From: an uncultured Gammaproteobacteria bacterium
GTDB lineage: Bacteria; Patescibacteriota; Patescibacteriia; Magasanikbacterales; GWA2-37-8
Assembly: GCA_964634875.1 (NCBI GenBank)
Contig: CAZWKA010000005.1
Location: 27,167-91,166 of the forward strand
Direction: 5' to 3'
DNA length: 64,000 bases
The position numbers and the translations under genes were made by a program. How positions within the stretch are numbered: position 1 is the first letter of the stretch; every line of letters begins with the position of its first letter. Positions 1,059-64,000 of the stretch are shown in pieces. The notes beneath the pieces are model-generated. The model was not told where the DNA came from, did no database searches, and was given only the letters and a program-made list of their open reading frames with translations.

Positions 1059-2168
1059 ATGTCCAAAGATTATTACAAAATTCTCGGTATCGACAAAAAC
1101 GCTTCGACCGATGAAGTAAAGAAAGCGTTCAAAAAAGCCGCGATGCAGCATCACCCGGATAAACCGACCGGGAACGAGGCAAAGTTCAAGGAAGCCAATG
1201 AGGCCTATCAGATTTTGTCCGACAAAGAAAAGCGTGCCCGTTATGATCAGTTTGGTTCTGACTTTGAACAGCAGGGTGGTTTTGGTGGTGGCATGAGTTG
1301 GGAAGATTTGATGCGCGCTTCACGCGGCCAAGGTGGCCAGGGCGGCGGATTTGAATTTAATTTTGGCGGACAAGATTTTGGGGATATTTTTGGCGACCTG
1401 TTTGGTATGGGTGGTGGACGGAGTCGTGGCAGTGCTCGTCAGTCACGTGGCCGCGATATTCAGGTTGATGTCGAACTCGATTTCAAAGAAGCGGCGTTTG
1501 GCGTGGAGCGTGATGTGCGTTTGCGCAAGCAAGATACGTGTGACGTCTGTAAAGGAAATGGTGCTGAGCCGGGCACTAGCATGGAAAAGTGTGAAACATG
1601 TAAGGGTCAGGGGCAGGTGGTGCAAAACCAGCGCACGTTCTTGGGGAATATGCAGACAGTGGCGACTTGTCCGACGTGCCAAGGGCGCGGCGAACATTCG
1701 ACAAAGAAATGCAAGCATTGCGGTGGAGACGGTGTGCTGTCGAAGGAGTCGACAATTAAAGTAAAAATTCCAGCAGGTATTGATGAGGGGCAGTCGATTC
1801 GTATTACGGGTAAAGGCGAAGCCGCCCCGCATGGTGGCACGAGCGGTGACCTCTATGTGTTGACCCATGTTAAACCAAGCAAAGAATTCCATCGTGAGGA
1901 TTTTGATGTATATGTAGATAAAGAAATTTCGTATCCGCAAGCAGTGCTCGGCGACACGATCGAGGTGCCGACGCTTGAAGGAAGTGTAAAGATTTTGGTG
2001 CCCGAAGGAACCGAGTCTGGTCAGTTGATCCGTTTAAAAGGCAAGGGGATTACGCATCTTGGTAGCACGACTCGCGGAGACGAGTTTGTGCGGGTCAAAA
2101 TTCGGGTTCCAAAGAAAGTCAGTAAAACGGCTAAAAAGCTTCTGGAAGAACTCAAAACCGAAGTTTAA
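1059..2168 (+). CDS. dnaJ: molecular chaperone DnaJ
   Basis: N-terminal J-domain (DYYKILGI...HHPDK), a Gly/Phe-rich linker, and four CxxCxGxG zinc-finger repeats ([32 protein letters not shown]). Confidence 0.95.
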
Positions 2169-2197
2169 AATTGGCTATAATTAGCCAAAATAGTGCG

Positions 2198-2228
2198 AAA
2201 AGGCCTTGACAAAAGGCCTTTTTTGTGC
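2198..2228 (+). terminator. rho-independent terminator of dnaJ
   Basis: Stem AAAAGGCC / GGCCTTTT with loop ttgacaaaa, followed by a T-run. Confidence 0.6.
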
Positions 2229-2234
2229 TATACT
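2206..2234 (+). promoter_or_regulatory. consensus sigma-70-type promoter (TTGACA, 17 bp, TATACT) embedded in the dnaJ terminator and facing the GC-rich island
   Basis: TTGACA at 2206-2211, a 17-nt spacer, then TATACT at 2229-2234. The same -10 hexamer recurs upstream of several genes in this window. Confidence 0.5.
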
Positions 2235-2285
2235 ATTTTGTTCGTCAAACAGACGAATTTTTTGTTTATAAAGCTCTTTAATAAT

Positions 2286-2329
2286 TTCTTACGGTGGAAA
2301 CAGGGTATCCCTTGTTTCCACCGTAAGAA
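2286..2329. repeat. perfect 17-bp inverted repeat hairpin at the left edge of the GC-rich island
   Basis: ttcttacggtggaaaca ... tgtttccaccgtaagaa, with an inner GGG/CCC pairing. Lies 30 nt upstream of the GGAGGG RBS and the ATG at 2359. No T-run follows. Confidence 0.65.
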
Positions 2330-2358
2330 CCAAACCGTTCACTGGAGGGAATTTCGTC

Positions 2359-2910
2359 ATGAAGACTGAGTCTGTCCTCGAGAGTGCCCGCAACCTCGGC
2401 CACATCACGATCACGCTCGGCTTCGCCGCGTTCATCGCTGCGATGGTCGCGAGCGGGTGCGGCACAGAGCCGGTCGGACAGGGCGACGTCGAGGTCGCGA
2501 CCCCCGCGCCCGCGCCGGATCCGCGCTTCACAGCGCCGGGCAACCCCGATTCTCCGCCTTGCTTGGGCTGCGGTTACGCAGCCACGGCTGGCGAGAGCAA
2601 GTCTGTCGCGCCGCCTGCGTCCGTCACCGTTCCCAGCGGCTTCACGCTTCCGCTCGACCTCTCCGGCACGCCCCTCAAGGCCTACCCGGCCTACTCGGCG
2701 CTCTGCCGGGGTGGGGATGTGTCTATCCTCTCGGACTGCCGCAGCCAGGAGCGCGTCTGCACCGCTCCCGAGAACTCCAACGTGGCGGTCGGCTCGATCG
2801 ATCGTCTGTGGTGTTCCGACGGAACGCAGGTCCTCATCCTCATCTGCCCCCTGGACACGAGCGGGGACACGTTCACGGTTGGTACTGAGACCTTCGCTGG
2901 CTGCCGCTAG
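2359..2910 (+). CDS. GC-rich secreted lipoprotein (island gene 1), 183 aa
   Basis: RBS GGAGGG; signal peptide with lipobox (MVASGC); Cys-rich C-terminal half. G/C at most third codon positions, contrasting with flanking genes. The overlapping same-strand ORFs at 2384..2959 and 2457..2888 are GC artefacts. Confidence 0.6.
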   Translation: MKTESVLESARNLGHITITLGFAAFIAAMVASGCGTEPVGQGDVEVATPAPAPDPRFTAPGNPDSPPCLGCGYAATAGESKSVAPPASVTVPSGFTLPLDLSGTPLKAYPAYSALCRGGDVSILSDCRSQERVCTAPENSNVAVGSIDRLWCSDGTQVLILICPLDTSGDTFTVGTETFAGCR

Positions 2911-2946
2911 CCAGCCCCCCCCGAGTCTTCGGACACGGGAGCCCTA

Positions 2947-2971
2947 CGACCCGGATTAAAAACCCGGGTCG
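2947..2971 (+). terminator. GC hairpin after island gene 1
   Basis: cgacccgg attaaaaa ccgggtcg, immediately followed by the conserved AT-rich element. Confidence 0.4.
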
Positions 2972-2974
2972 CTC

Positions 2975-3010
2975 AAATAAATTTCTAAATTTTGTTTGGA
3001 AATTTTGAGA
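2975..3010. repeat. conserved AT-rich inter-gene element, copy 1 (AAATAAATTTCTAAATTTTGTTTGGAAATTTTGAGA)
   Basis: Near-identical to 4380..4414. Internal dyad AAATTTC / GAAATTT. Confidence 0.65.
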
Positions 3011-3119
3011 GTAAGTTCTTTACAACTTAAGGCTACTTACACTCCTGTGGTTAGAACAATGCTTAATGAGTCTTGTTTCAACCACGGGAGCAATCCCATT
3101 TCCTAGGGGGAAGAACACC

Positions 3120-4307
3120 ATGAATCAGACTTTTGCCTCTGCTTTCGCCATCGCCACCACTGTCCTCTTCGGCGCATGCGGCTCGTTGCCGCGGTGGGAG
3201 GATACAATCAAGGCGCCGGCCTTCCAGGCTGTGCGTGAGATCGTGGTCGCGAACGTCCAGCTGGACAGCGCCATTACTGGTACGGCCAACGGCCGTGTCG
3301 TGGTGGCCAAAGAGAAACTGTTCGACAAGACAGTGCTCCTCGGTGCACTCGAGAGCTATGACGTCGTGAGCGGCAGCAAAATCGCTGAGCGCATCCCGAC
3401 TGGTGACTGGCGCGAGACCTGGCACAGCGGCGCGCTCGTCGCTGGTGCGAAGGGTGAGGCTCTTATCGGCCTCGGCGGCGAGTTCCGGCAGATCAACAGC
3501 GATCTCGCGGACACGCAGCGCTTCGATCAGGCCTACACCTATGTGAATCCGGTCTGGACGCCCAGCGGCTGGCTCATCGGCGGGGCGGACAAGTTCGACG
3601 GTGGCGACTCGGTGAAGTACTACTTCAACGATCCGACTGGCGATTCGCCCCCGAGCTTCGCCTTCGACGGCTGTGGCTGGGTGCGGGGCATCGCGAAGCT
3701 GGGTCACACCACCTTCGCAGTTGTCTCGCGGCGCGATGGTAACGCCAAGAACTGGTTCGAGCTGCTCACCTTCACGAAGGGCGCACAGCACGTCTATCGG
3801 GCGCTCAAGACGGACACGGGACGAGTCGGAGGCTACTGCGGCGGTCTCCAGGGTCTGGAGCTTCTCGCTATCGAAGCGGATCGTGCTCGTGAAGAGGTTA
3901 TCGTCGTGTGGTCGTTCGATAAGGACGAGAACTACGAACTCCACGTTACGGCGTTCTCTGAGGACGGCCGGTTGCTGCGGGATCAGAAGCTTCTTTCCCG
4001 CTACGAGCGCGTGTATGCGGCCAAGATCTTCCGTGGGGGAGTCGCTGTCGTCGGGCTGAGCAAGCTCGGCGCTGGTGGCTTCACGCTCAAGCTGATCTCG
4101 ACCGACAGCACCATCAAGGAAGGCGAGGCAATCCCAAATAAGGATGTTGACTCGGTGAGTTCCTTCCGGATCGCCCAGGCTGACCCGAGTCACCTGGTGG
4201 TCGCCTACACCTCGCCGAGTCGGACGGCTGCCCAGGTTCGCTCCACGGTTCTCAAGGTCTACGACCTTGGACCGGGCCCGGGAGACGAGCCGCTCCACCT
4301 CGAGTAG
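3120..4307 (+). CDS. GC-rich secreted lipoprotein (island gene 2), ~395 aa
   Basis: RBS AGGGGG then ATG at 3120 (MNQTFASAFAIATTVLFGACGS; lipobox LFGAC). The track ORF starts further upstream at 3066. The antisense ORF 3078..4298 is a typical high-GC artefact. Confidence 0.6.
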   Translation: MNQTFASAFAIATTVLFGACGSLPRWEDTIKAPAFQAVREIVVANVQLDSAITGTANGRVVVAKEKLFDKTVLLGALESYDVVSGSKIAERIPTGDWRETWHSGALVAGAKGEALIGLGGEFRQINSDLADTQRFDQAYTYVNPVWTPSGWLIGGADKFDGGDSVKYYFNDPTGDSPPSFAFDGCGWVRGIAKLGHTTFAVVSRRDGNAKNWFELLTFTKGAQHVYRALKTDTGRVGGYCGGLQGLELLAIEADRAREEVIVVWSFDKDENYELHVTAFSEDGRLLRDQKLLSRYERVYAAKIFRGGVAVVGLSKLGAGGFTLKLISTDSTIKEGEAIPNKDVDSVSSFRIAQADPSHLVVAYTSPSRTAAQVRSTVLKVYDLGPGPGDEPLHLE

Positions 4308-4350
4308 CCTTCCCCCTCATCTCTTCCGCGCTTCGGCGCGCTCGAGACCA

Positions 4351-4375
4351 ACGCCCGCGATTCACTCGCGGGCGT
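4351..4375 (+). terminator. GC hairpin after island gene 2
   Basis: acgcccgcg attcact cgcgggcgt, followed by copy 2 of the AT-rich element. Confidence 0.4.
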
Positions 4376-4379
4376 CTTC

Positions 4380-4414
4380 AATTAAATTTCTAAATTTTAT
4401 TGGAAATTTTGAGA
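4380..4414. repeat. conserved AT-rich inter-gene element, copy 2 (AATTAAATTTCTAAATTTTATTGGAAATTTTGAGA)
   Basis: Roughly 31 of 35 positions match copy 1, with the same position relative to the preceding GC hairpin. Confidence 0.65.
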
Positions 4415-4428
4415 AGCATTATAACGCT

Positions 4429-4455
4429 AACACCTTTACAAAAGGTGTTTTTTGT
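4429..4455 (+). terminator. rho-independent terminator
   Basis: aacaccttt aca aaaggtgtt followed by TTTTTT. Confidence 0.5.
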
Positions 4456-4513
4456 TATCTACTACTTTAGTCTTTAAGTCTCTGCAACGCCCACTTGTCG
4501 GAGGAAATGCAAC

Positions 4514-5701
4514 ATGCATGTTTTTCGAATCATTGGTTGGTTACTGCCCGCGTGTCTTTCTGCGTGTGGCGAACCGGGTATGACCCCAGGTGCTGCTGAC
4601 CTGCCTCCCTCGGGCGATGAGCGTGGGTGTCAGTCCTTTGGTAATGAGGTTGTTGTCCGGGATGTGCCCCTCGGCGAGACGTATCGTATCGCTGCCTTGG
4701 CGAACAGCTACCTGGTCGCCTGGCACACGAATACCCGCGATGTTCCGAGGGAAGTTAACTTCCACCTGTTTGGTCTTGGCGGAGAGGCTGTCACCACGAA
4801 CCCAGTCACGATCCCGCATGGTGAGGTTGATCTCAATTTCGTGATCGCCGGCAAGGACGGGCGTTACTACGTCCAGACGGTCGAGTCGGTGGCCGGCCGG
4901 CCGTTGTATTGGCTGCATGCGTTATCGCCCGAAGACACTACCTCCATCGTTTCGGCACCGCTCACTGAGAACATGAATGTCTCGGGGATGGCTGTTAGTC
5001 CCTGGGGCCTCCTGGCTGTTTCTGGTAGTTCGACGGCGGAAGAGAGTAGCTACGCCGTTTCGACGGTGGATGAAAAAGCTACCCTGACTCATTTCGCTGA
5101 GATCCGTGAGGCGGGCACGACGTGTCCGGTCGTATCTGCGGTTGCCGCGAGCCATAATCAGCTTGCGATCGCTGCGGTGCGTGAAACGACGAGGGGTACG
5201 AGGAAGCTGAGCGTCATCATCCGTTCGGCAGACGGTTCGGTGAACGATGTTCTTATCGAGGAGCACCAGCGGGTAGCGCTCGAAGAGGCGTTCTACTGCG
5301 CGTCGTACGCTGTTTACATCAAGAAGCTCTTCGCCCTGCCCGACGGTTCGTTTGGTGTGTGGTGGTGGGACTATCGCGTCGCTGGCTACTACCTGACCGT
5401 TGTGTCGAACACTGGCGTTGCTGGTCCGGCGCGTCGAATCAAGCCGGTTCAGTTCCCGGGCATCTCTGATTTGGCTTGGGTGGAAGGTGATTTCGTTGCC
5501 AGCGTCTACCAGTACAACGGTCGGCCCGATGAAGTCGGTATTCTGCGTCTGCAGCTTGACCTGGAGGTTGAGACGAGCGACTACCTGAAGCTGGGCATCG
5601 ATAGTTGGGAGGCACCAAAGATCGCTTCCACAGGGCGACACTTGGCCGTCGTGCGCAATTCGCTTGAGTCACCCGCGGTCTACTTTCTCGCCTGCCGTTA
5701 G
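4514..5701 (+). CDS. GC-rich secreted lipoprotein (island gene 3), 395 aa
   Basis: RBS GGAGG; signal peptide with lipobox (LSACG); GC-rich codons; the antisense ORFs here are artefacts. Confidence 0.6.
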   Translation: MHVFRIIGWLLPACLSACGEPGMTPGAADLPPSGDERGCQSFGNEVVVRDVPLGETYRIAALANSYLVAWHTNTRDVPREVNFHLFGLGGEAVTTNPVTIPHGEVDLNFVIAGKDGRYYVQTVESVAGRPLYWLHALSPEDTTSIVSAPLTENMNVSGMAVSPWGLLAVSGSSTAEESSYAVSTVDEKATLTHFAEIREAGTTCPVVSAVAASHNQLAIAAVRETTRGTRKLSVIIRSADGSVNDVLIEEHQRVALEEAFYCASYAVYIKKLFALPDGSFGVWWWDYRVAGYYLTVVSNTGVAGPARRIKPVQFPGISDLAWVEGDFVASVYQYNGRPDEVGILRLQLDLEVETSDYLKLGIDSWEAPKIASTGRHLAVVRNSLESPAVYFLACR

Positions 5702-5769
5702 GCGATTTTGGCAATTTAGTGCCATCCCCAATCTATATTGGGCATGCGTGCGGACATGTTGCCCTCCGC

Positions 5770-5810
5770 TTTTCTCTTGAGCGCTTACGTATTAAGCTCT
5801 CAAGAGAAAA
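5770..5810 (+). promoter_or_regulatory. long hairpin between island gene 3 and the ECF sigma promoter
   Basis: ttttctcttga gcgcttacgtattaagc tcaagagaaaa forms an 11-bp perfect outer stem plus inner pairing. It may terminate the island transcript or act as an operator for the sigma gene. Confidence 0.4.
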
Positions 5811-5850
5811 ATTGTTTACCCTGATATTTTTTGGTAAACTACAGATTGTT

Positions 5851-6363
5851 ATGGCTTTTACTAAAAATGATTTTGAAAAGTTTTATAACGATCACTTTGA
5901 TAAAGTGTATCGTTTTATTTTCTTTCGGATTGGCAGCAACAAAGATGTGGCCGAGGATTTGGTATCCGAGATTTTTATGAAAGCGCTCAAAGCGTTCGAA
6001 ACGTATGACCCGAAGGTCAGCCAGTCAGCATGGATCATGACGATCGCAAAACATCATCTCCTTAATTACTGGAGGGATCGTAAAAATGCGGTGCCACTGC
6101 CCGGAAGCGAGATGTCCCAAGAAAATGGTGTGTTGGATAGTTTTTGGCTTAAAAGCGCTCTGTTACAGTTTGGTGTCCAAAAGGAGAAATGGCACGTAAC
6201 CGAACTTTTATTAAAATTAGAAACAAACGAGCGGGAAATTGTAACTTTTCACTACCTTTTGGGGTATAGTTATTTAGAGATTGCTGAACTGCGGGGTCAA
6301 AGCGAAGGGGCGGTAAAAGTTGCAGCCCACCGAGCGATTAAAAAAATGCGTGATTGGTTATGA
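5851..6363 (+). CDS. ECF-type RNA polymerase sigma factor
   Basis: Sigma-70 region 2 (YDPKVSQSAWIMTIAKHHLLNYWRDRKN) and region 4 HTH (EREIVTFHYLLGYSYLEIAELRGQSEGAVKVAAHRAIKKM). The ATG at 5851 follows a TTGTTT...TAAACT promoter. The track ORF start at 5719 is a GTG extension. Confidence 0.8.
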   Translation: MAFTKNDFEKFYNDHFDKVYRFIFFRIGSNKDVAEDLVSEIFMKALKAFETYDPKVSQSAWIMTIAKHHLLNYWRDRKNAVPLPGSEMSQENGVLDSFWLKSALLQFGVQKEKWHVTELLLKLETNEREIVTFHYLLGYSYLEIAELRGQSEGAVKVAAHRAIKKMRDWL

Positions 6364-23822: not shown

Positions 23823-24695
23823 ATGGAAGAACGACAATCACCCTCTTTATTTAATTCACTTGACCCTAAAAGCGCCCTTATGATGGGTTTGGTCGGCGGA
23901 GTCCTCACGCTCTGTACGGTCGGGTTTCTTATTTTTCTCGGTCTTTTGCTTGGTGGAAAATTAGAGCTTGCTTCGAGCGCTGGTGGTGCTAATCTGAATG
24001 ACCAGTATGCAGCGCTTGCAGGGGCAGGCACTGGCAACGAATTGCCTTCGACGCCGCCAGCAAATATTCCTAAATCTGATCGGCCGCAAGTAGAATTATT
24101 TGTCATGTCCGACTGTCCATATGGTCTCCAGATGGAAAAGGCCTATATCCCAGCATGGGATCTTTTAAAGAAAAAAGCTGATATTGATGTGAAGTTTGTT
24201 TCTTATGCAATGCATGGCAAAAAAGAGATTGATGAGAACACAGCTCAGTATTGTATCCAAAAAGAACAATCTGATAAGTACCTTTCGTATTTACAGTGTT
24301 ATACCGCTAATGGAAATTCAGCTAGCTGTTTAGCTTCCGCTGGGGTTAATGAAAAGAAATTGCAATCATGCGTTGATGGTGCCAACAAAGAGTTTGGTAT
24401 TTTGGATGAATACAATAATCAGGCTAATTGGCTGAGCGGACAGTTCCCAGTGTACCCAATCCACAAAGATTTGAACGAAAAGTACGGTGTCCAAGGATCA
24501 CCGACGCTTGTTATCAATGGCGTGCAAGCCGAAGTGAGCCGTACGCCTGAAGCCATCAAACAAGCGATTTGTGCAGCGTTCAATACTGCTCCTGAAGAAT
24601 GCTCTAAATCACTCAGTGCTTTAGCCTTAGGGGCTGGTTTTGGCACAGCACCGGCAGCGCAAGGTGGTGCTCAGGCAGCAGGTTGCGGGACTTAA
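23823..24695 (+). CDS. membrane-anchored DsbA-like thiol:disulfide oxidoreductase
   Basis: N-terminal TM, then a thioredoxin fold with a CPYG active site (FVMSDCPYGLQ), plus extra Cys pairs. Confidence 0.65.
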   Translation: MEERQSPSLFNSLDPKSALMMGLVGGVLTLCTVGFLIFLGLLLGGKLELASSAGGANLNDQYAALAGAGTGNELPSTPPANIPKSDRPQVELFVMSDCPYGLQMEKAYIPAWDLLKKKADIDVKFVSYAMHGKKEIDENTAQYCIQKEQSDKYLSYLQCYTANGNSASCLASAGVNEKKLQSCVDGANKEFGILDEYNNQANWLSGQFPVYPIHKDLNEKYGVQGSPTLVINGVQAEVSRTPEAIKQAICAAFNTAPEECSKSLSALALGAGFGTAPAAQGGAQAAGCGT

Positions 24696-25043: not shown

Positions 25044-25124
25044 ATGCTTTTCGTAGCTTACCCCAGTTGGGTTGACAAAAACCCTAATTTAGGGTAAACT
25101 AAGCGGTTATTTATTCTTAACTCT

Positions 25125-27233
25125 ATGCATGTGTTATTTTCCAAAAAAACCTTAGTAACAGCCTTTCTGGTACTGGTTGGGGTAGCGGCCGTTGCTTTTG
25201 GTGCACCGGCTCGGGCGGCCACTACCCAGACTCAGGTAGAGACAGTCATTCGAGTCTATAACGCGGCTGGAATTATTACGATCCCCGAGGTAACACTCGT
25301 TTCTGATCCAAAGAACCTGACCCAGGCTGGATTTGATTATCGCAGCGGGGAAGTTGTCCCAGCAGCGCGGGGCTCGTTTTATGTAGGTGTGCGCGGCAAG
25401 ACACCGTACCTTATTGGAAATTCTACTGGACAAGGCGGTTTATACCGTTTAAAGAAAGTCGGAACTACAACCCCGCTTCGCCGTCTCGGTAACATTAACC
25501 GGAGCGGTGTATCGTATACACGTAGCGGTCTTACCTTTGGTAAAGACACAATTTTTGCAGTGTACGATGAAAATGATGCTACCTATTTTAAAATTCGCGT
25601 CCTGAGTGTCAAATTAGTTAATGTAGTAAAACTAGAAGGAACACCTACCATTACCGCTCCAGCTAACGACGCGGCAGTTAATTCCTCGGCTACGAGCGTT
25701 CGGGTGGCCTGGAACGGTGTCACAGGAGCTACGTCGTATACGCTTGCCTTGTACTGCACTTCTTGTGAAGCTGAATGGGAGCCGCGTACCTATGGGCTAA
25801 CGGGAGCTTCCCGCAGCTTTGTGCTTCCGCTTAATAATCTTCCGTCCGGAAAACAGTACTATTACTTAACCGTTAAAGCTTCAACAGGTAGAGAGACTAC
25901 GCCGGCTTCCTTCCCGGTGTACTTCACCTATACTAATGACACTATTTCAACTGTGGGTACACCGACGATCACTTCTCCGTCAAAGGATCAGGTGTTCACA
26001 ACCTCTCCGCGTACAATCACGGTTCAGTGGAGCAATAGCACTTCCGCTGTTCGGTATGAACTGGCTGTTGATTGTGATTCCTGTGCAGGCATGACCGGAT
26101 GGAAACGGTACCAGACCTATTCAGCACTCCCGGCTAATATGACAAGCCAGGCTGTTACGCTGCCTCAGGATGGCTCCTACAGTGTTTCTGTGCGTGCTTT
26201 TGATCTGCAAGGCGTGGCGAGTGATTGGTCAGAAAAAATTATGTTCCGCTTTGGTGCCGGGATAACTCCGGGAACATCAACTATTGTTCCACCTACTATT
26301 GTCGGCCCAACAGCTGGACAAGTCTTGACGTATTATCCCCGTGCTATCCGTGCTTCCTGGTGGAAGGTGGCTGGCGCGAGCGCGTATGAATTGAGCCTGG
26401 AGTGCCAGTCGTGTGAAGCTGGGACAGCGGGCTGGAAGGAATTGAGCCAATATACCATTAATAATATGGCTGGTAACGCTAACACACTCGATATACCAGC
26501 TGTTTCGATCGATTCTGAGTACCGCCTGCGCATGCGGTCACTCGATGGGGCTAGTAAGAAAGGCCCTTGGTCAGAGTATACGTATTTCCGTTTTTCCACT
26601 ATTAATGTCGGTGTACCGGTCATTTCTTCTCCAACCATGAATCAGACGCTTACCAACAACCCCCGCACGTTTGGGGTGATGTGGAACGCAGTCAACCAGG
26701 CAGTCAGTTATGTGGTTGAGGTAAGTTGCAAGAACTGCGCTACAACAGCCTGGGGTAAGGTTGATTATTACCCAACGATTGATACTAATCCCTGGCTCGC
26801 AATTACTGCCCCCGGTGATGACATGTACCGTGTCCGTGTGCAGGCCGTGGATCAATACAATAACCATACGGCTTGGTCTGAATATGTGAATTTCTCTTTT
26901 GTGACGACGGCGGGTATGCAGATTGCAGCTCCACGTATTACTGGCCCAGCGGCTGGTGGCGAAGTAAGTAATAGCACCAAACAGGTTTCACTTTCCTGGA
27001 ATTCTGTAGGCAGCCAGTATCGTTATGAAATTTTGGTAGAATGTAATTCATGCGGTACATCCAGTGGATGGCAGTATTGGAGAGCTTATCGCACTCCGGA
27101 CGCTTCGAATTCATACATTATTACCGTGCCTCAGAATGCGTTGTATCGGTTCCAGGTTCGAGCAGTTGATGTTGATGCGAATCGGACAGGACAGTGGTCT
27201 GAATTGACGACCTTTAGCTACCGAATGAACTAA
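25125..27233 (+). CDS. secreted protein with five tandem ~100-aa Ig/FN3-like repeats, each carrying a CxxC motif
   Basis: Signal peptide and an N-terminal ~170-aa domain. Five repeats follow, each opening (T/A/V)P.I..P, then W(N/S), Y.L, C.SC (CTSCEA, CDSCAG, CQSCEAG, CKNCATT, CNSCGTS), W, and a closing R..D...W(S). Confidence 0.6.
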   Translation: MHVLFSKKTLVTAFLVLVGVAAVAFGAPARAATTQTQVETVIRVYNAAGIITIPEVTLVSDPKNLTQAGFDYRSGEVVPAARGSFYVGVRGKTPYLIGNSTGQGGLYRLKKVGTTTPLRRLGNINRSGVSYTRSGLTFGKDTIFAVYDENDATYFKIRVLSVKLVNVVKLEGTPTITAPANDAAVNSSATSVRVAWNGVTGATSYTLALYCTSCEAEWEPRTYGLTGASRSFVLPLNNLPSGKQYYYLTVKASTGRETTPASFPVYFTYTNDTISTVGTPTITSPSKDQVFTTSPRTITVQWSNSTSAVRYELAVDCDSCAGMTGWKRYQTYSALPANMTSQAVTLPQDGSYSVSVRAFDLQGVASDWSEKIMFRFGAGITPGTSTIVPPTIVGPTAGQVLTYYPRAIRASWWKVAGASAYELSLECQSCEAGTAGWKELSQYTINNMAGNANTLDIPAVSIDSEYRLRMRSLDGASKKGPWSEYTYFRFSTINVGVPVISSPTMNQTLTNNPRTFGVMWNAVNQAVSYVVEVSCKNCATTAWGKVDYYPTIDTNPWLAITAPGDDMYRVRVQAVDQYNNHTAWSEYVNFSFVTTAGMQIAAPRITGPAAGGEVSNSTKQVSLSWNSVGSQYRYEILVECNSCGTSSGWQYWRAYRTPDASNSYIITVPQNALYRFQVRAVDVDANRTGQWSELTTFSYRMN

Positions 27234-27245
27234 AATACTTTAATT

Positions 27246-27279
27246 AAAAAACAGCTTCGCATTTTGCGGAGCTGTTTTT
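27246..27279. terminator. bidirectional rho-independent terminator
   Basis: AAAAAACAGCTTCGCA ttt TGCGGAGCTGTTTTT between the repeat protein and the convergent recJ. Confidence 0.55.
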
Positions 27280-43376: not shown

Positions 43377-45536
43377 ATGCAAAAACTTTATTTTTTACTC
43401 CTTTGCCTCTTGCTTGCGGCGCTCGGTGCCAATAGCATTTGGTGGCAAAGTTGGGCTGTGGGCGCGCTGGGACTTGTTTTTTACTTTTGGTTGACTGCCC
43501 GGCCTGCTGGCAGGTGGTTGCAGCATTTTTTTTGTTATACAGAGAATATCCCGCAGCGTTTTTGGGGGGTGTTTGGAAGTTTTTTATTAGTGAGCAGCTT
43601 GTCCGGAGGATTAGTTGTGACCGGTTTTTTTTCAAGTTCAGCGGTGATCGTTGTTTTAGCTCTTAATGCTTGTTTTTGGCCGTTAGTGTGTCGAATGCTC
43701 CCAATCAAAAAAAATGAAATTGAGTTTTATGCTGCTCAGGAAAAATTTTTTATACATGCAAAATTAAGCTGGGGACTTGGTTTGGCATATGCTGTTTTGG
43801 TGCTGCTAGGGCTGGGACTGCTGCTTAGTTCCCGTTCTTCCGGTGTGATTAGTGCGCCCTGGCAAGTAATTCATCCGATTTTTATCTATGTTTTTGCGGC
43901 AGCAACCTTTATTTTGGGGCTACTTATTTTTTCCCGGCTAGGAAGTCGTTTGCTTTTAGTTTTGTTCATGGTGCATGGGCTCCTCATGCATAGCTACCTG
44001 CCGTTGACGCATACGCTCTTGTATGGCGCAGATAGCTGGCGACACCTCGCGACAGAAGAGCGCTTAGTCAGAGGCGAGGGCACCTTTAAGCCGGAAATTA
44101 GCGACACGGTAAGTGCACCTAACCAAGATATTGATTTAGGGCTCGTTTCGTATAGCCAGTTGTGGGGGATAACAAGTGTTTTAGCTGGTTTAACGGGAGC
44201 GTCGCTTTTGTGGCTCAATCAGTGGCTTGTGCCAATCCTGTGGGCATTGGTACTACCACTTCTCCTCTATGAGTTTGCCTGCACGCTTCGTTGGAGCCGG
44301 GAGCTTACCTTTGGGCTTATTTTCTTAAGTTTTTTGCCGTTTGCCTTAACGAGCGCTGGTTCGTTTACTTTGCCGGTTAGTTTTGGTTTTTTAAGTTGGC
44401 TTTTTTTTATTCTGCTGCTTGTTAAGCGCCTGGTGAAACCTGAGACCGGTCAACGAATTGTGCTCGGATTTTTATGTATTCAGTTATGCGGTGGGTATGC
44501 ACTCTATGCGCTTTTGGCCGTTATCTTTTTTATCGTGGCAGAATTATTTTTGCAGCTTCAGAATAAAGCGCAACGACATTTTAACGGATTTTTTGCGGTA
44601 ATAGTTGGATTGAGTATTGTTGGAATCACTGTGTTCATTCCGCTGTTAGAATATTTTGCCGGCTATAACACGCTTGTGCCAACTACTCTATGGTTTGGCC
44701 AGCTGAAGCAGTTCGTGGGTAATTTTACAGCTGCGTATGTGGCTGCCGGTCCTCGTCCACACGATATTGCCACAGGTAATATTATTTTTAACCAAGTTCC
44801 GTTGGCTAGTTTTGTGACCAACCTTTTTACCTGGACACGCTGGCCGCTGGTTGGGTTTATGCTGGCATGGTGGGGTTTATGTATTCGTGGCTGGTATTAT
44901 TTGTTGCAGCAGCGAGGGGCGGTATCGCATTGGTTCGCTGTGGTGAGTGGTGGAGTGTTCGGTGCTTATGTCCTGGGGCGTTATTTTTTTCAGGGTGAGC
45001 AAGTGCTAACGCGTCGGCTTGAAGTGGTTGTGGCTTTAGCGGCTATTTTTTTAGTGTGCAGCGCAGTTCTTGGTTTGTCGGATCGGTATAAGTTGCGCTA
45101 TAGTAAAAATTGGCTGTTGGTTGTGTTGGGGGTGGTTAGCCTGGCCACGAGTGCTTCGTTCACGCTTGGACCAGATACGCTGACGGTTAGTAATGATCAA
45201 TACCAGGCCATGAAATGGGTACATGAGCGAGTTGGGCAAAATCAGGCGAAGTGTGTGCTTGCCGAGACGTTTCCGCTCCTAGCGCTCGAAGCCCTCAGCC
45301 GTAAGGAAATTATTGGAGGAGGTTTTCCAATCTCGCATGATTTTGAGCAGCCGGAACAGCAAAAGTTGTATACCCGATTAGCCGCCGACCCGCTTGATAA
45401 CGTGGCAGTCGGTGAAGCATTGCAGCTAACGGATGCCGAACACTGTTTCTTGGTTGCGCCGCTGAATGAGGAGGTGGTCGCTGTAGAGCCGGCTGCAAAG
45501 TTTGGCACTGTGGCGGTTTGGGAATACGGTAAATAA
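43377..45536 (+). CDS. large polytopic membrane protein (at least 12 TM) with a ~190-aa C-terminal soluble domain; possible GT-C-type glycosyltransferase
   Basis: Highly hydrophobic N-terminal 520 aa; a loop with YGADSWRH near residue 220. Family not recognised. Preceded by a TATACT -10 and a G-rich tract. Confidence 0.5.
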   Translation: MQKLYFLLLCLLLAALGANSIWWQSWAVGALGLVFYFWLTARPAGRWLQHFFCYTENIPQRFWGVFGSFLLVSSLSGGLVVTGFFSSSAVIVVLALNACFWPLVCRMLPIKKNEIEFYAAQEKFFIHAKLSWGLGLAYAVLVLLGLGLLLSSRSSGVISAPWQVIHPIFIYVFAAATFILGLLIFSRLGSRLLLVLFMVHGLLMHSYLPLTHTLLYGADSWRHLATEERLVRGEGTFKPEISDTVSAPNQDIDLGLVSYSQLWGITSVLAGLTGASLLWLNQWLVPILWALVLPLLLYEFACTLRWSRELTFGLIFLSFLPFALTSAGSFTLPVSFGFLSWLFFILLLVKRLVKPETGQRIVLGFLCIQLCGGYALYALLAVIFFIVAELFLQLQNKAQRHFNGFFAVIVGLSIVGITVFIPLLEYFAGYNTLVPTTLWFGQLKQFVGNFTAAYVAAGPRPHDIATGNIIFNQVPLASFVTNLFTWTRWPLVGFMLAWWGLCIRGWYYLLQQRGAVSHWFAVVSGGVFGAYVLGRYFFQGEQVLTRRLEVVVALAAIFLVCSAVLGLSDRYKLRYSKNWLLVVLGVVSLATSASFTLGPDTLTVSNDQYQAMKWVHERVGQNQAKCVLAETFPLLALEALSRKEIIGGGFPISHDFEQPEQQKLYTRLAADPLDNVAVGEALQLTDAEHCFLVAPLNEEVVAVEPAAKFGTVAVWEYGK

Positions 45537-46992: not shown

Positions 46993-47021
46993 TTGTTAAT
47001 TTTGGCTAATAGCTGTATACT
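46993..47021 (+). promoter_or_regulatory. promoter TTGTTA, 17 bp, TATACT
   Basis: Ends 10 nt upstream of the ATG at 47032. Its -35 is the TTG alternative start of the over-extended track ORF. Confidence 0.45.
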
Positions 47022-47031
47022 AGGGGTAAAT

Positions 47032-49254
47032 ATGGATAGTATCGACCAAACAGAAAACGAAAAGCTGGCTGCCTCAATTGATCCGACAATCAATTTTTTT
47101 GGCATGACTAATTACCGGAACCAGAACCGGCGTTTTGGTATTAAGATTGATGACCGGCGCCGTCATATGTATTTGGTGGGGAAGACAGGTATGGGTAAAA
47201 CCACCATTCTTGAGAACATGGTTATTAACGATATTTATTCCGGCCACGGTATTGGGCTGGTAGATCCGCATGGCGACTTTGCCGAAAAGGTGCTTAACTT
47301 TGTTCCCGCTAACCGTATTAACGATATTGTCTATTTCAATCCTTCGGATATTGATTATCCGATTGGGTTTAATATTTTGGAATCAATTAACCCCGATTAC
47401 AAACACTTAGTGACCTCGGGTCTGATGGGTGTCTTTAAAAAGATTTGGCCAGACGTCTGGAGTGCCCGTATGGAATATATTTTGAATAATACGATTTTGG
47501 CGCTGTTAGATTTTCCAGGTACGACACTCTTGGGTATTAACCGTCTACTTGCTGATAACGAGTACCGCAAGCGAGTGGTTGCCAACCTAAAAGATCCGGT
47601 GGTCAAAGCTTTTTGGCAAACTGAGTTTGCGGGATACAGCGATAAATATAAGCAAGAAGCCGTTGCGCCTATCCAAAACAAGATTGGTCAATTTTTGTCA
47701 GCATCAATTATCCGCAACATTGTGGCTCAGGTCAAATCGCGTATCGATATCCGCGAGATTATGGACAGCAAGAAAATTTTTATTATGAACTTGTCCAAAG
47801 GGCGCATTGGTGAAGATAACTCGCGCCTCCTGGGCGGTATGCTTATTACCAAGATCCAGCTTTCGGCCATGGAGCGTGTCGATATAATTGAAAAAGACCG
47901 TAAAGATTTCTTTTTGTATGTTGACGAGTTCCAAAACTTTGCCACGGAAAGTTTTGCGAATATTTTGTCCGAAGCCCGTAAGTACCGCCTTGATTTGATT
48001 ATGGCACACCAGTACATGGAACAGCTTGATGAAAAGGTGTTGGCGGCGGTTATTGGTAACGTTGGTACTATGGTTACCTTCCGAGTAGGATCGAGTGATG
48101 CCGAAATTTTGGCTAAAGAATTTATTCCAACATTTGTGGAAGAAGATTTAGTTAACTTGCCCAAGTACCATGTTTATTTAAAACTCATGATTGACGGTGT
48201 TGCGTCGCGACCATTTAGCGCAATGACCTTGCCGCCTATTGGCAGTCCAACCGGAAGCTTGGAGAAAGTAATACGCGTTTCGCGTGAACGCTATGCAGTT
48301 AATCGCAATACCATTGAAGATAAGATTGCAAAATGGAGTGGTATGCTTATAAATGCCGAAGACGTTGAGGCAGAAATGGCGCTTGGTCCCGATGTAGTTA
48401 CTTTTAAAGAAGATTTACCTCCGAAGCCAGCGGTTGTGCCTCCACCTCTGGCTAATGTCTCAACTCCACTTCCTGTCGTACCGCCCGCTCCGGCTAGTGT
48501 CCCAAAACCGGCTGAAAACCGTACTCCAGCTGCCCCAGCATCGCCGGTTCCGCCGAGTTTGGTAAGTGCTCAGCAGCAACGTGCCGTGTATGTTAATCGG
48601 ACTACTCCTTTGCCAGCATCTTCGCCTGCTGTAAGGTCGCCGCAATTACAGCCAATGCGTGAGCCGCAGCGGGATACTTTTCAGCGTCCGCCGCAGCTTC
48701 GTGATCAATCTGCCGCTGGTTTAGGCTCTGCAATGGGTGCAGATGGCGAGCGAAGAAAAAAGCGGCGGCGCAAAAAGAAAGGTTCTGGTTCGGGCTCCTT
48801 GCCCTCACAAGGGGAACAAGTGCTCTTGGTTGATCCGGCACAACAGGGGATATCGCTTAGCGCCATGCTTCCTAAAAACGCGCCGCAGAATGACCGGTCG
48901 CGAGACATTCGTCCGCCTCGGCAGCCGCAGGCACCACAACAGCCAACGAGCATGCCCGAACAACGCCAGGGTGAGCGCCGCGAGCAGTCGGGTGCACCTG
49001 AGCCAATTAATTTGGGTAGCCCGGTACAGCCTCGTGAACAACCGCCAGTACAACCACCTGCGCCTGCTGCACCCCGTCCAGCGCCAGTTGCACCACCGAC
49101 ATCAGCTGTTCCGACGGCTCCGCCACCACCTGCTCCAATGGCACCGCCACCGCAGCCTCGGCCCGAACCGCCACCAACACCGCCAGCTCTTCGTCCCGAA
49201 CAGCAACCAACCCAATTACAGCCGGGGCAAGTCGTAAAGCTTGATATACATTAA
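47032..49254 (+). CDS. orphan VirD4/TraD/TrwB-like (FtsK-HerA superfamily) P-loop ATPase with a ~300-aa Pro/Gln/Ala-rich disordered C-terminal tail
   Basis: Walker A LVGKTGMGKTT and Walker B FFLYVDEFQNF, ~430-aa core. The tail (from ~aa 450) is low-complexity PPAPA-type with an RKKRRRKKK cluster. Confidence 0.65.
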   Translation: MDSIDQTENEKLAASIDPTINFFGMTNYRNQNRRFGIKIDDRRRHMYLVGKTGMGKTTILENMVINDIYSGHGIGLVDPHGDFAEKVLNFVPANRINDIVYFNPSDIDYPIGFNILESINPDYKHLVTSGLMGVFKKIWPDVWSARMEYILNNTILALLDFPGTTLLGINRLLADNEYRKRVVANLKDPVVKAFWQTEFAGYSDKYKQEAVAPIQNKIGQFLSASIIRNIVAQVKSRIDIREIMDSKKIFIMNLSKGRIGEDNSRLLGGMLITKIQLSAMERVDIIEKDRKDFFLYVDEFQNFATESFANILSEARKYRLDLIMAHQYMEQLDEKVLAAVIGNVGTMVTFRVGSSDAEILAKEFIPTFVEEDLVNLPKYHVYLKLMIDGVASRPFSAMTLPPIGSPTGSLEKVIRVSRERYAVNRNTIEDKIAKWSGMLINAEDVEAEMALGPDVVTFKEDLPPKPAVVPPPLANVSTPLPVVPPAPASVPKPAENRTPAAPASPVPPSLVSAQQQRAVYVNRTTPLPASSPAVRSPQLQPMREPQRDTFQRPPQLRDQSAAGLGSAMGADGERRKKRRRKKKGSGSGSLPSQGEQVLLVDPAQQGISLSAMLPKNAPQNDRSRDIRPPRQPQAPQQPTSMPEQRQGERREQSGAPEPINLGSPVQPREQPPVQPPAPAAPRPAPVAPPTSAVPTAPPPPAPMAPPPQPRPEPPPTPPALRPEQQPTQLQPGQVVKLDIH

Positions 49255-49283
49255 TTTTTCTTACCTTTTCTGTTATTCGTGAT

Positions 49284-50534
49284 ATGCGTTATTCACATCT
49301 GTTTGGAAAAACCAGTAAAACAGCTCCGGCTGACGCCGAGAGTCGGAATGCACAACTCTTGACCCAAGGTGGATTTATTTCTAAGCAAATGGCAGGGGTC
49401 TATAATTATTTGCCGCTCGGTTTGAAGGTGCTTAGTAAAATCCAAAATATTATTCGTGAGGAATTGTCTGTGATTGGTGCGCAAGAAATTTTGATGCCGG
49501 CAATGAGTCAGGAAGAAAGTTACGTTACTACTGGCAGGCAGGGGATGGATGTTTTGTTCCACATGCTTGGTCAGGGTGATACACAACTTGTTTTGAACCC
49601 GACGCACGAAGAAGTGGTGACGCCGCTCGTTCAGAAATATACTTTTTCATATCAAGATCTGCCAACTGCGGTGTACCAGATCCAGAATAAATTCCGTAAT
49701 GAAGCGCGGGCGAAGTCTGGGTTGTTGCGTGGTCGGGAGTTTAATATGAAAGACCTGTATTCATTCCATACTTCAAATGAAGATCTGGATGCCTATTATG
49801 AAAAAGTACAGCAGGCTTATCATAAAATTTACCAACGCCTCGGTATTGGAGAGCGAACACTTTTAACCTACGCTTCAGGCGGGGATTTTAGTAAGTATTC
49901 GCACGAGTTCCAAACCCTTTCGGAGATTGGTGAGGACACAGTACATGTGTGTGAAAAGTGCCGAGTAGCTATTAACCAAGAAATTATTGCTGAACAACCA
50001 GGCTGTTCTTTGTGTGGCAACACCGAACTGGTTCCCCAGAAAGCAATTGAAGTAGGGAACATATTTAAATTACACCAGCGTTATTCAAATGCCTTTGGTT
50101 TTACATTTCAAGATAACGCTGGGGAGCAGAAGCCGGTCGAGATGGGGTGCTATGGTATTGGGCCCTCGCGCATTATGGGTACCTTGGTAGAAGTATTTAA
50201 TGATGAAAAGGGAATTGTTTGGCCGGCAGCCGTCGCTCCCTACCAGGTGCATGCGGTGGTGCTCGGTCCGGACGAGGCCGTCTTTGCGGCCGGTGAAACG
50301 TTATACCAAACACTCCTTGAAAAAGGTGTTGAAGTCCTTTTGGACGATCGGCCTGATGTTTCGGCTGGGGCAAAATTTGCCGACGCAGATTTAATTGGTA
50401 TTCCGCTCAGGATTGTTATTTCTAAAAAAACTTTGGCTCAGAATTCATTTGAGCTTAAAAAGCGTTCAGAAAAAGAAGCGCGTTGTATACCGCTCGAAGA
50501 AGTAGCGGGCGCAGTTATTTCCGCTATCGTATAA
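49284..50534 (+). CDS. proS: prolyl-tRNA synthetase (short bacterial type lacking the insertion/editing domain)
   Basis: Its N-terminus aligns with ProRS (TSKTAPADAESRNAQLL...YNYLPLGLKVLSKIQNIIREE), plus class II motifs and a C-terminal anticodon-binding domain. Confidence 0.85.
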   Translation: MRYSHLFGKTSKTAPADAESRNAQLLTQGGFISKQMAGVYNYLPLGLKVLSKIQNIIREELSVIGAQEILMPAMSQEESYVTTGRQGMDVLFHMLGQGDTQLVLNPTHEEVVTPLVQKYTFSYQDLPTAVYQIQNKFRNEARAKSGLLRGREFNMKDLYSFHTSNEDLDAYYEKVQQAYHKIYQRLGIGERTLLTYASGGDFSKYSHEFQTLSEIGEDTVHVCEKCRVAINQEIIAEQPGCSLCGNTELVPQKAIEVGNIFKLHQRYSNAFGFTFQDNAGEQKPVEMGCYGIGPSRIMGTLVEVFNDEKGIVWPAAVAPYQVHAVVLGPDEAVFAAGETLYQTLLEKGVEVLLDDRPDVSAGAKFADADLIGIPLRIVISKKTLAQNSFELKKRSEKEARCIPLEEVAGAVISAIV

Positions 50535-61868: not shown

Positions 61869-62005
61869 AAGGCTGCTCTCGCTCAATGTTATAGCGTGTA
61901 AAACACTGAGCGAGGTCGAGCAGTCTTGGGAGTTTTTTGCAGCGAGAGGGAGTGGCCAACTTGGTTTTCGGCCGCTCCCTCGTTGTATGAGGGGGTGAAA
62001 TTTGT

Positions 62006-63112
62006 CTAGGCTGGGGGTCCGAGCTCAGCCGTCTCCACGCGCGAGCTGAGGAACGCGCCCAGGTGTCGCCGGAGCGTTGTGATACCCGGCTTGATCAGCT
62101 CGGCATAGTCAACGAGGGCGCTGCCGATCATCGCATACTCCTTGGTCATTCCCGAGAGCTGATAGGTGGAACGCCCAAGCTTGAGCGGGTACTCGATCTG
62201 CTTCTTGTTGGTCGAGTGCCGAGCGACGTTCGGCTTGAAGCCTAGGTTGTTTCTCAAAAAGCCGAGCCCGCGGCTCGGGCGCTGCGAGATGTCATGCTCG
62301 TTGTACAGCGAGAGCTTGGCCGAGGTGAGCTCGCCATCTTTCAGAACCGTCTCAATGGCGTAGCGCTCTGTATAGACGATCTCCGGCAGAAGCGAAGGGT
62401 TGTTCATGAGCTCGTGGAACTCGGGCGGCAGAACAGCACGAACGCAATTCTCATAGAGATCGAGGTCCAGCAGCTCAGGACCGTCGAGCGGCTCTTCACC
62501 CCGCCAGATCGGCCGACCGAGCGGGATGCCGGTCAGGCGCTTGATCGTCTTCAGGATCGACTTGCGCTCCTCGTCGAGCAGGTGGCTCACGTTCGCCGTG
62601 AAGAAGGTGCGACCACGCTCTACCCTTCGCTTGAGCGCACCCCACTGCTGGATGATCCAGAGCGCGCCGTGGTCCGGCGAGATCGGGCGACCGTCATCGA
62701 AGGTCCAGCTGCAGGTTACGTAGTTTTCGGACTTTCTCTGCTTTAGGCTGAACCCGACGCGAAAACTCTTCGGGCCGATACCTACCTGATTCATGCCGCT
62801 GTAGCTCAGTTCCACCGGACCGTAGGTGACCGTGTCGCGCTGCCCCGAGAACGCGGAGTTTCCGACCCCCTCTCGGATAGTGTAAGGAGCGAGGTGATCA
62901 CCCGGCCGATACTCAAGGAGCCAGCTGGTCGGCAGGAGTGCGCTCGAAGGCTCCACCCACACGTGATCGCCCATGTTGTGGATCATCAGGTGCCGAGAGC
63001 CTGTCTCGTGGTGGTCCTCCGGCCGCAGCTGCCACTCACCCCGTATACGTAGGAGCGGCGTTGGGCTCGGGAACCGGACCTGGTTTGCGAAAAAATAGTT
63101 CTGACCATTCAT
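62006..63112 (-). CDS. GC-rich orphan hypothetical protein, ~368 aa
   Basis: Visibly GC-rich ORF with GC at third codon positions in an AT-richer genome. RBS GAGGAAAAG upstream of the ATG at 63112. The track ORF extends to 63211. The plus-strand ORFs inside it are artefacts. Confidence 0.55.
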   Translation of the reverse strand: MNGQNYFFANQVRFPSPTPLLRIRGEWQLRPEDHHETGSRHLMIHNMGDHVWVEPSSALLPTSWLLEYRPGDHLAPYTIREGVGNSAFSGQRDTVTYGPVELSYSGMNQVGIGPKSFRVGFSLKQRKSENYVTCSWTFDDGRPISPDHGALWIIQQWGALKRRVERGRTFFTANVSHLLDEERKSILKTIKRLTGIPLGRPIWRGEEPLDGPELLDLDLYENCVRAVLPPEFHELMNNPSLLPEIVYTERYAIETVLKDGELTSAKLSLYNEHDISQRPSRGLGFLRNNLGFKPNVARHSTNKKQIEYPLKLGRSTYQLSGMTKEYAMIGSALVDYAELIKPGITTLRRHLGAFLSSRVETAELGPPA

Positions 63113-63291
63113 GAACTTTTCCTCTGCTCTCCCTTTCCATTCAAGGCTCCGGTCAGGGCACTGCCTGACATGCGGAGGAGTCTTGGTAACTCTCAGGAGT
63201 AGCTCGCGCATAACAAATTTATTGTGCTCGAGCTCATCCGGAAAACTCTTAAGAGTATACTTTTTAGATCATTTTGTCAATATACTGGGGT

Positions 63292-63324
63292 AAAAAACAC
63301 GACGTCGATTGACGTCGTGTTTTA
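63292..63324. terminator. bidirectional rho-independent terminator
   Basis: AAAAAACACGACGTC gatt GACGTCGTGTTTT, a perfect 13-bp stem, downstream of gpmA on the minus strand. Confidence 0.65.
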
Positions 63325-63341
63325 GACTTAGACCATGCGCA

Positions 63342-63947
63342 TCAAAGAATTTTTTTAATTGGTTTTTGATTTTTGTCATTGAAATAATAGACCCACGGAA
63401 TTCCCGTTGGAATCTCAAGCGTAATTATTTCTTCGGGCGTCAGTCCTTCTAATTTCATGACAAGTGCACGCAGACTATTATGGTGAGCAGTAACTAAAAT
63501 ATTTTTTCCTTGCGCTAGCTCTACTGTTATTTTTTCTTCAAAGTGTGTGTGGACGCGAGTAGCAGTATCGGCCAGGCTTTCACCTTCGGGCGGGCGTGTG
63601 TGATAGCTTCTGCGCCATAATTTAACTTGCTCCTCGCCGTGCAGGGCAATAGTCTCAGCATGGGTTTTGCCCTGAAGCGCTCCGTAATGGCGTTCGTTGA
63701 GTGCTCTGTATGATTGTAGGGGTAAATGACTTTTATTGCTCGATTCCAAGGCGATTTTTGCTGTTTCTATGGCGCGAGTCAGTAGGGAAGTGTGCACGAG
63801 TGAAATATCAAAATCAGCTAACTTTTCGCCGGCCCGGCGAGCCTGGAGTTCGCCTTCCGGAGAGAGGGGGATATCGGTTTGGCCGGTAAAGCGACCCTCG
63901 GCGTTCCAAAGGGTTTTACCATGACGTAGGAGGATGAGAGTAGACAT
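63342..63947 (-). CDS. gpmA: histidine-phosphatase-family phosphoglycerate mutase
   Basis: LILLRHGKTLWNAEGRFTGQTDIPLSPEGE contains the catalytic RHG motif; 201 aa. Confidence 0.8.
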   Translation of the reverse strand: MSTLILLRHGKTLWNAEGRFTGQTDIPLSPEGELQARRAGEKLADFDISLVHTSLLTRAIETAKIALESSNKSHLPLQSYRALNERHYGALQGKTHAETIALHGEEQVKLWRRSYHTRPPEGESLADTATRVHTHFEEKITVELAQGKNILVTAHHNSLRALVMKLEGLTPEEIITLEIPTGIPWVYYFNDKNQKPIKKIL

Positions 63948-64000
63948 AGAAAGTTGTTAAAGTATTCAATACAGTGTACCACGGGTTAAAAATAAAAACA

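Follow-up and report, generated by a model that had tools for sequence, protein, structure and literature searches.

A predicted secreted protein with five fibronectin type III repeats, each carrying a conserved CxxC pair

The fibronectin type III (FN3) domain (PF00041, E-set/Ig-like clan) is a module of about 100 amino acids that folds into seven beta-strands and occurs in tandem arrays in secreted proteins. These traits recur in a protein of 702 amino acids that is encoded on the forward strand at positions 25125..27233 (stop codon included) of the DNA analyzed here, a 64,000-nucleotide stretch of contig CAZWKA010000005.1, deposited as coming from an uncultured gammaproteobacterium. We refer to the whole stretch as the window and use its coordinates throughout. 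The protein also shares with the FN3 domain a Trp in strand B, a Tyr in strand C, a Tyr in strand F and a 'WS..F' motif in strand G. It differs in two respects: every repeat has a CxxC pair, and the loop between strands C and C' is about three residues longer. What this pair may do is the main subject of the sections below.

Three other groups of proteins resemble the one described here. The N-terminal domain of GH78 alpha-L-rhamnosidases, represented in Pfam by Ig_Rha78A_N (PF25788), also matches other CxxC-bearing FN3 proteins, with scores up to 57 bits. It is a single N-terminal module, whereas our protein has a five-fold tandem array; its match on our protein is limited to profile positions 34-102, and a Pfam scan of the protein found no glycoside hydrolase domain. 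Class I cytokine-receptor modules (IL-2R beta, GHR) are FN3 domains that contain structural disulfides and have, ahead of strand G, a WSxWS-like motif; the profile made from the repeats has the IL-2R beta and GHR D2 domains among its matches in the PDB. In the receptors, the disulfides join different strands of the N-terminal module, whereas here the CxxC would close a single loop, and only 'WS(E/D)Y' is found, not WSxWS. The likeness implies no evolutionary link. Two other carriers of the CxxC modules, P0042 and P0104, belong to the same repeat subtype, with CxxC at the same columns and a signal peptide. They end in C-terminal S-layer homology (SLH) domains and lack the N-terminal domain of our protein, which in turn has no SLH domain or other anchor.

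Architecture of the protein and fold of its repeats

The open reading frame at 25125..27233 coincides exactly with the secreted protein of five tandem ~100-residue repeats that a preliminary description, made from the sequence, had proposed, and the repeats align over their whole length. The same description placed an N-terminal domain of ~170 amino acids after a signal peptide. The signal peptide stands, but the size does not: the segment comprises a signal peptide of 31 residues and an all-beta domain of ~136. The Sec-type signal peptide (aa 1-31, MHVLFSKKTLVTAFLVLVGVAAVAFGAPARA; 25125..25217, forward strand), assigned by reading the sequence, ends in A-R-A, where cleavage is placed by the A-x-A rule, and has no lipobox Cys; AlphaFold2 (AF2) predicts a helix within it, at aa 7-24. 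The protein is probably exported. The N-terminal domain is followed by five repeats of ~105 amino acids, and the C-terminus (...FSYRMN) directly ends repeat 5, with no anchor motif. No SLH, LPXTG, LysM or C-terminal transmembrane segment was found (Pfam scan to E<=10), and NCBIfam has no family for the protein. Thioester and isopeptide adhesin domains were considered and rejected, as neither a motif nor a Pfam match was found.

The family is rare. A public protein collection holds one identical copy of the protein and three orthologs that are 55-59% identical to it. Among 5.8 billion clusters there are four full-length members, and the more distant members number a handful.

The five repeats follow each other on the forward strand with a single dyad in each. 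Repeat 1 (aa 170-275; 25632..25949), the most divergent, has CTSC at residues 211-214 (25755-25766), and repeat 2 (aa 276-385; 25950..26279) has CDSC at 317-320 (26073-26084). Repeat 3 (aa 386-493; 26280..26603) carries CQSC at 427-430 (26403-26414), repeat 4 (aa 494-598; 26604..26918) CKNC at 535-538 (26727-26738), and repeat 5 (aa 599-702; 26919..27230) CNSC at 640-643 (27042-27053). The period between successive dyads is 105-110 residues. The five dyads occupy one alignment column and contain all the Cys of the protein, ten in number, an even count that leaves none unpaired. All ten are invariant across the three orthologs, which bears out the earlier claim of a conserved CxxC in each repeat.

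Pairwise identity among the repeats is 24-35% in full-length alignments. Searches of repeat against repeat with phmmer, scaled to a database of 1e6 sequences, give E-values from 4e-15 to 5e-2, repeat 1 being the outlier. These values, together with alignment from end to end, indicate that the repeats are truly homologous and ancient, and they answer the worry that the resemblance might reflect low-complexity composition. Thirteen columns are invariant in the five repeats (P, I, P, W, Y, C, C, W, Y, P, Y, S and F). When 15 repeats are aligned, only P, W, Y, C, C, Y, S and F remain, and no His, Asp or Glu is among them. The sequence pattern first reported for the repeats holds overall, except that its last element, R..D...WS, is present in repeats 2 to 5 and absent from repeat 1. 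Counterpart repeats of different orthologs are 48-73% identical, compared with 24-35% between paralogous repeats, which indicates that the five-repeat array is older than the divergence of the species and that each repeat has been conserved individually. On the same numbers, recent amplification of the repeats is rejected.

The repeats are FN3 domains by predicted strand pattern and by Foldseek, and profile matches of modest significance point the same way, in agreement with the initial suggestion of Ig/FN3-like beta-sandwich units. The 15-repeat profile matches many solved FN3 domains in concordant register, though only at E 2e-4 to 1e-2, including those of myomesin, DCC, EphB2 and IL-2R beta and the FN3 domain of chitinase A1. 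The AF2 model of the protein, computed from a four-sequence alignment, has a mean predicted local distance difference test score (pLDDT) of 66.5, with the repeats at ~70-88, and DSSP assigns 7-8 strands to each repeat. Foldseek matches the model to multi-FN3 chains (contactins, gp130, LAR), with E-values down to 7e-18. In repeat numbering, W27 in strand B, Y36 in strand C and Y77 in strand F, the tyrosine corner, are invariant both in the five repeats and in the 15. The only Pfam model above its gathering score is Ig_Rha78A_N (30.5 bits against a cut-off of 27.4, E 4.4e-7), with its best stretch at aa 307-377, in repeat 2. PF00041 itself stays under threshold, as does fn3_4 (E 0.005); precomputed PF00041 matches are present in the orthologs, flagged 'faint'.

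The FG loop of repeat 4 carries a motif, R[VI]R[VI]Q[AS]VDQ[YH][GN]N[HR]..WS.Y (RVQAVDQYNNH..WS.Y in our protein), that is far better conserved in distant relatives than any other repeat. It is found in P0006 (385-483), P0009 (279-379), P0019 (138-237), P0085 (136-233) and P0007 (378-474), and copies in P0007 that lack the CxxC still keep it. The motif suggests a binding or contact surface specific to this repeat.

The N-terminal domain (aa 33-168; 25221..25628, forward strand) is modeled confidently by AF2 from eight sequences (pLDDT 83.8, predicted template modeling score 0.81). Its conserved motifs are GN..GQGG..RL and Y.R.G....K....A(V/I)YD....Y.K.R. Four more distant proteins, P0006, P0007, P0009 and P0077, have it too (phmmer E 3e-17 to 2e-8), and each continues into CxxC-FN3 repeats, three in P0077, six in P0009, seven in P0006 and eight in P0007. 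Pfam and PDB sequence searches gave no match to it, nor did Foldseek against PDB and BFVD at E<=0.001, where the best structures were FHA-like sandwiches with a TM-score of ~0.45. It is thus an orphan domain, with no recognizable relative beyond a few FN3-repeat proteins.

Position and variation of the cysteine pair

In the AF2 model, strand C ends with the first Cys in four repeats (strands 204-211, 310-317, 526-535 and 632-640). The exception is repeat 3, where C427 lies inside strand 418-428. The second Cys opens the C-C' loop. In standard FN3 topology, this loop is at the C-terminal pole of the module, beside the AB and EF loops.

The pair is not confined to this family. At E<=1e-3, an exhaustive profile search returned 19,388 cluster representatives, the majority generic FN3 arrays. 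When the best 150 were re-aligned, about 20 carried CxxC at the two columns of the profile where our protein has it, in half or more of their repeats. These carriers are 330-1000 amino acids long, and most have a signal peptide. Their modules follow the consensus P.ITsP...q.LTNyPR....W..V.gA..Yevev.CD.Cs....W...tY....LPgDn.YRVRVRA.d..G..G.WSdYvYF.f.T. No description of this subtype was found in Pfam, NCBIfam or the literature searched. The preliminary description could not name the repeat family, and indeed no curated Pfam or NCBIfam family describes the CxxC form, which is a recurrent, uncurated subtype of FN3.

The variation of the pair among relatives is informative about its role. Among 838 well-covered domains from the best 150 matches, 638 have no Cys, 42 have one, 158 have two and none has more; both Cys are in the C-C' region in 115 of the 158. 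In proteins of the CxxC type, each repeat has either both Cys or none, and some orthologous repeats of P0007 have neither. The distance from the Tyr of strand C to the Trp of strand C' is 14.1 residues in domains with the pair and 11.2 in domains of the same proteins without it (p = 8e-23). The spacing within the pair also varies. The gap between the two Cys is 3-7 residues in 19 domains of relatives. Repeat 1 of P0077, a member of the same N-domain family, has Cx6C, and in giant FN3 proteins this loop holds pairs that are spaced further apart. In two repeats, one partner has moved. P0005/331-431 has lost the first Cys and gained one in the EF loop, just before strand F (profile positions 45 and 75), and P0015/431-527 has lost the second and gained one at the same place (42 and 76.5). 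Such a move is expected if each Cys requires a partner to bond with at its own pole of the domain. Other Cys pairs recur in FN3 lineages among the matches, at profile positions 20/86, 72/86, 45/95 and 83/88. Their recurrence suggests that stabilization by disulfides is a general theme in exported bacterial FN3 modules, of which the CxxC would be one solution.

We consider the chances somewhat better than even that each CxxC forms a small local disulfide within its domain, in the C-C' loop. This reading is favored because the Cys are gained and lost in pairs, the loop is longer where they occur, their spacing varies, a partner can relocate and no further ligand is conserved. Metal, redox and disulfide roles had all been put forward at the outset; the disulfide fits the comparative evidence best, and the other two are less favored. 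The model that follows is of an exported structural or adhesive protein of the envelope. After cleavage of the signal peptide, it would consist of the N-terminal beta domain followed by a rod of five FN3 modules. The Cys that ends strand C in each module would form a disulfide with the one three positions on, where the extended C-C' loop starts. Such a staple would rigidify the loop at the C-terminal pole, adjoining the EF loop, and modules so stapled would be stabilized for extracytoplasmic conditions. The SLH domains of P0042 and P0104 suggest, by analogy, that the protein may act at the surface or in adhesion.

Several observations weigh against this model. Within the modeled repeats, confidence is lowest in the CxxC loops, with pLDDT below 50 at 321-328 and 432-435. 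Acidic residues border the dyad in many relatives ([DE]-C-D-x-C). The CxxC arrangement, whose disulfide closes a 14-atom ring, is also the classical one for redox activity or for binding Cu(I)/Hg(II). Genes for membrane-anchored thiol-redox proteins lie just upstream in most orthologous loci (GILT-like, or MsrB in the locus L007), and their presence might point to a redox function instead of a fixed staple. Disulfides outside the cytoplasm would be less certain if the organism is anoxic. Finally, the adhesive or structural role is read from the architecture of a protein that has no recognizable anchor.

The Cys might instead bond between domains or between molecules, giving a covalent surface lattice or fiber. 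The lack of a recognizable cell-wall anchor would suit such a lattice, as would the surface-layer contexts suggested by the SLH-bearing relatives and the position of the CxxC at the C-terminal pole, which FN3 topology and the AF2 model place near the domain junction. However, the presence of both Cys or neither in each repeat, and the relocation of a partner within the repeat, point to a partner in the same domain, and Cys three residues apart normally pair with each other. We regard cross-linking as very improbable.

Another possibility is that the FN3 modules act outside the cell as a scaffold for thiophilic metal sites, one at each CxxC and five per protein, either two-coordinate for Cu(I) or Hg(II), as in CopZ, Atx1 and MerP, or for Zn completed by a second chain or domain. 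A CxxC at the start of a hairpin is similar to a zinc-knuckle or Cu(I) dyad. An acidic residue is often found in or before the dyad, with Asp at the first x position in 53 of 102 CxxC domains, and Pfam CopC, a beta-sandwich copper protein, gives a weak match (E 3e-4). That match is under the cut-off, however, and the copper ligands of CopC are His and Met. Each repeat offers just two candidate ligands, with no invariant His, Asp or Glu, and the whole protein has two His. Relatives with odd numbers of CxxC repeats (3, 5 and 7), with Cys-less repeats between them, argue against pairing of domains around a metal. The spacing of 2 to 7 residues among relatives and the shift of one partner to the EF loop in two repeats also speak against a metal site, which we judge unlikely. 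More specific sites of this kind were rejected. Zinc ribbons and knuckles have four ligands per module, and there are exactly two Cys per repeat. Sites of the CopZ/Atx1/MerP type have GMxCxxC in a ferredoxin-like fold, and the repeats are FN3 beta-sandwiches with no Met before the dyad.

Genomic neighborhood and comparison of loci

The genes upstream of the FN3 gene encode an S8 subtilase, an epimerase, GT2 and GT4 glycosyltransferases, a methyltransferase, a GT4-like protein, a thioredoxin-fold protein anchored by a transmembrane segment and a YtxH-like protein; recJ is convergent from downstream. The thioredoxin-fold gene (23823..24695, forward strand), with a CPYG motif and a C-terminal GCGT, is given here as context. 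It had been taken for a DsbA-like oxidoreductase. That identity was not borne out, as the protein has C-P-Y-G instead of CxxC and its only Pfam match is a weak one to GILT (24.7 bits against a cut-off of 22.4). CPYG, with its single Cys at the active-site position, and GCGT are conserved in four orthologs; outside the window, orthologous genes are found at 8660-9568 in L001, 5216-6094 in L005 and 1927-2793 in L008. The protein ends in a Gly/Ala-rich tail that holds the strictly conserved G-C-G-T; the Cys of this tail could be a detached second active-site cysteine.

The neighborhood is one ground for a redox role, in which the CxxC would be an active dithiol/disulfide that exchanges with the neighboring thiol-redox proteins or forms mixed disulfides with a partner or host surface. 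The thioredoxin-fold gene is two genes upstream of the FN3 gene in the window and in L001/L006, L005 and L008. In the more distant locus L007, the GILT-like/YtxH pair is replaced by a gene for a transmembrane-anchored MsrB (1182-1766, forward strand; SelR domain, E 5e-42), and the FN3 ortholog (1913-4663) is directly downstream of it. A CxxC-FN3 gene here has another type of extracytoplasmic thiol-redox protein as its neighbor, although this adjacency may be a coincidence. The strict conservation of the dyad in orthologs also suits a redox site. Several findings tell the other way. The thioredoxin-fold gene is missing from L004, and the FN3 gene has a promoter-like site and a terminator of its own. 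In the thioredoxin fold a CxxC begins a helix; the dyad here does not, and the repeats contain only beta structure. The spacing of the Cys varies, and orthologous repeats of P0007 have dropped both together. Gene order is conserved across the flanking housekeeping genes too. A redox role is thus quite unlikely. Separately, a thioredoxin-like CxxC site was rejected as a candidate, since the repeats are all-beta and the dyad spans the boundary between strand C and the loop. Equally doubtful, in our estimate, is a broader proposal, that the CxxC pairs are functional extracellular dithiol sites, either of the Cu(I) type or forming a thiol-disulfide relay, which would work with the upstream redox proteins while the N-terminal domain serves as a targeting head. 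If true, this would be a new use of the FN3 scaffold.

The orthologous loci keep the entire neighborhood, including recJ, a hypothetical gene, lepA and murJ. Because the shared order extends to RecJ-LepA-MurJ, it indicates collinearity of related genomes and not a dedicated operon. An R4-type alignment scan of genome contigs gave five true orthologous loci and one weak match, L010, in an independently submitted Gammaproteobacteria metagenome-assembled genome, unrelated to the FN3 locus. A scan of JGI metagenome contigs yielded no true further member of the family; its single match, L011, is unrelated and high in G+C.

The FN3 gene has candidate transcription signals of its own. A sigma-70-like promoter candidate, TTGACA-17-TAAACT, was found by consensus scan at 25072..25100 on the forward strand; it matches at 10 of 12 positions, a match to consensus only, and ends 24 nucleotides upstream of the ATG. 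The interval from the -10 element to the ATG (25101-25124) has no recognizable Shine-Dalgarno sequence (…taagcggttatttattcttaactctATG), and the leader would be very short if this promoter is used. A strong hairpin at 27247..27279, with a 15-bp stem and A/T runs on both flanks, is a candidate bidirectional terminator between the convergent FN3 gene and recJ. Rfam and tRNA scans of the window found nothing.

It had been suggested from the order of the genes that the FN3 protein is the disulfide-bonded, glycosylated product of this locus. The promoter-like site and terminator of the gene argue otherwise, as does the absence of the thioredoxin-fold neighbor from L004 and its replacement in L007. 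The protein has 12 N-x-S/T sequons where 7.2 +/- 2.3 would be expected, and all four orthologs share only two of them. With sequons barely enriched and poorly conserved, the idea of an N-glycoprotein was rejected, and nothing found ties the glycosyltransferase genes to the FN3 protein.

Origin of the window and significance of the protein

The window does not look gammaproteobacterial, since its LepA and sigma factor appear closer to non-proteobacterial homologs. LepA scores 667 bits against 2ywe, which we take to be the Aquifex protein, 643-647 against 5imq and 4w2e, and 626 against 3cb4, presumably a LepA of the E. coli type. The primary sigma factor, encoded downstream of dnaG, has 453 amino acids and lacks the non-conserved insertion of E. 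coli-type RpoD. Its best alignments, which cover almost the full length, are to short SigA chains of 368-390 amino acids, which from their PDB codes we assume to be those of B. subtilis, S. aureus and C. difficile. The window also carries an RNase J-type beta-CASP gene, YtxH, PEGA and a compact mraZ-mraW-x-mraY cluster. Our guess is that the source is a deep-branching, possibly monoderm-type group such as Patescibacteria.

Other parts of the window are unusual. In the segments 2001-6000, 48001-50000 and 62001-64000, G+C is 0.50-0.58, compared with ~0.45-0.47 elsewhere, and GC skew is near zero. These segments may be foreign or compositionally unusual DNA. Two open reading frames in the first of them, 3066-4307 and 4514-5701, match nothing in Pfam and have long antisense frames opposite them. 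Elsewhere, a protein of 719 amino acids with no Pfam match (43377-45536, forward strand) is followed after ~1.5 kb, with smaller open reading frames between, by a 753-residue ATPase that resembles TrwB and type IV coupling proteins (46993-49254, forward strand). The two may belong to a module for DNA uptake or conjugation.

The FN3 protein is an unnamed variant of a very common building block of surface proteins and not a new kind of system, and the findings leave the current understanding of any system unchanged. If the local disulfide is correct, the protein would make a small, well-defined addition to FN3 diversity, in the form of a lengthened C-C' loop closed by a CxxC disulfide. The CxxC subtype would then merit a profile model of its own for consistent annotation, and it could give protein engineers a natural example of a loop-stapled FN3 scaffold. 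For the organism, the protein is among the very few sizeable secreted proteins visible in a poorly characterized lineage. Its predicted secretion, its size and its orphan N-terminal domain make it a plausible candidate for a role on the surface or in attachment.

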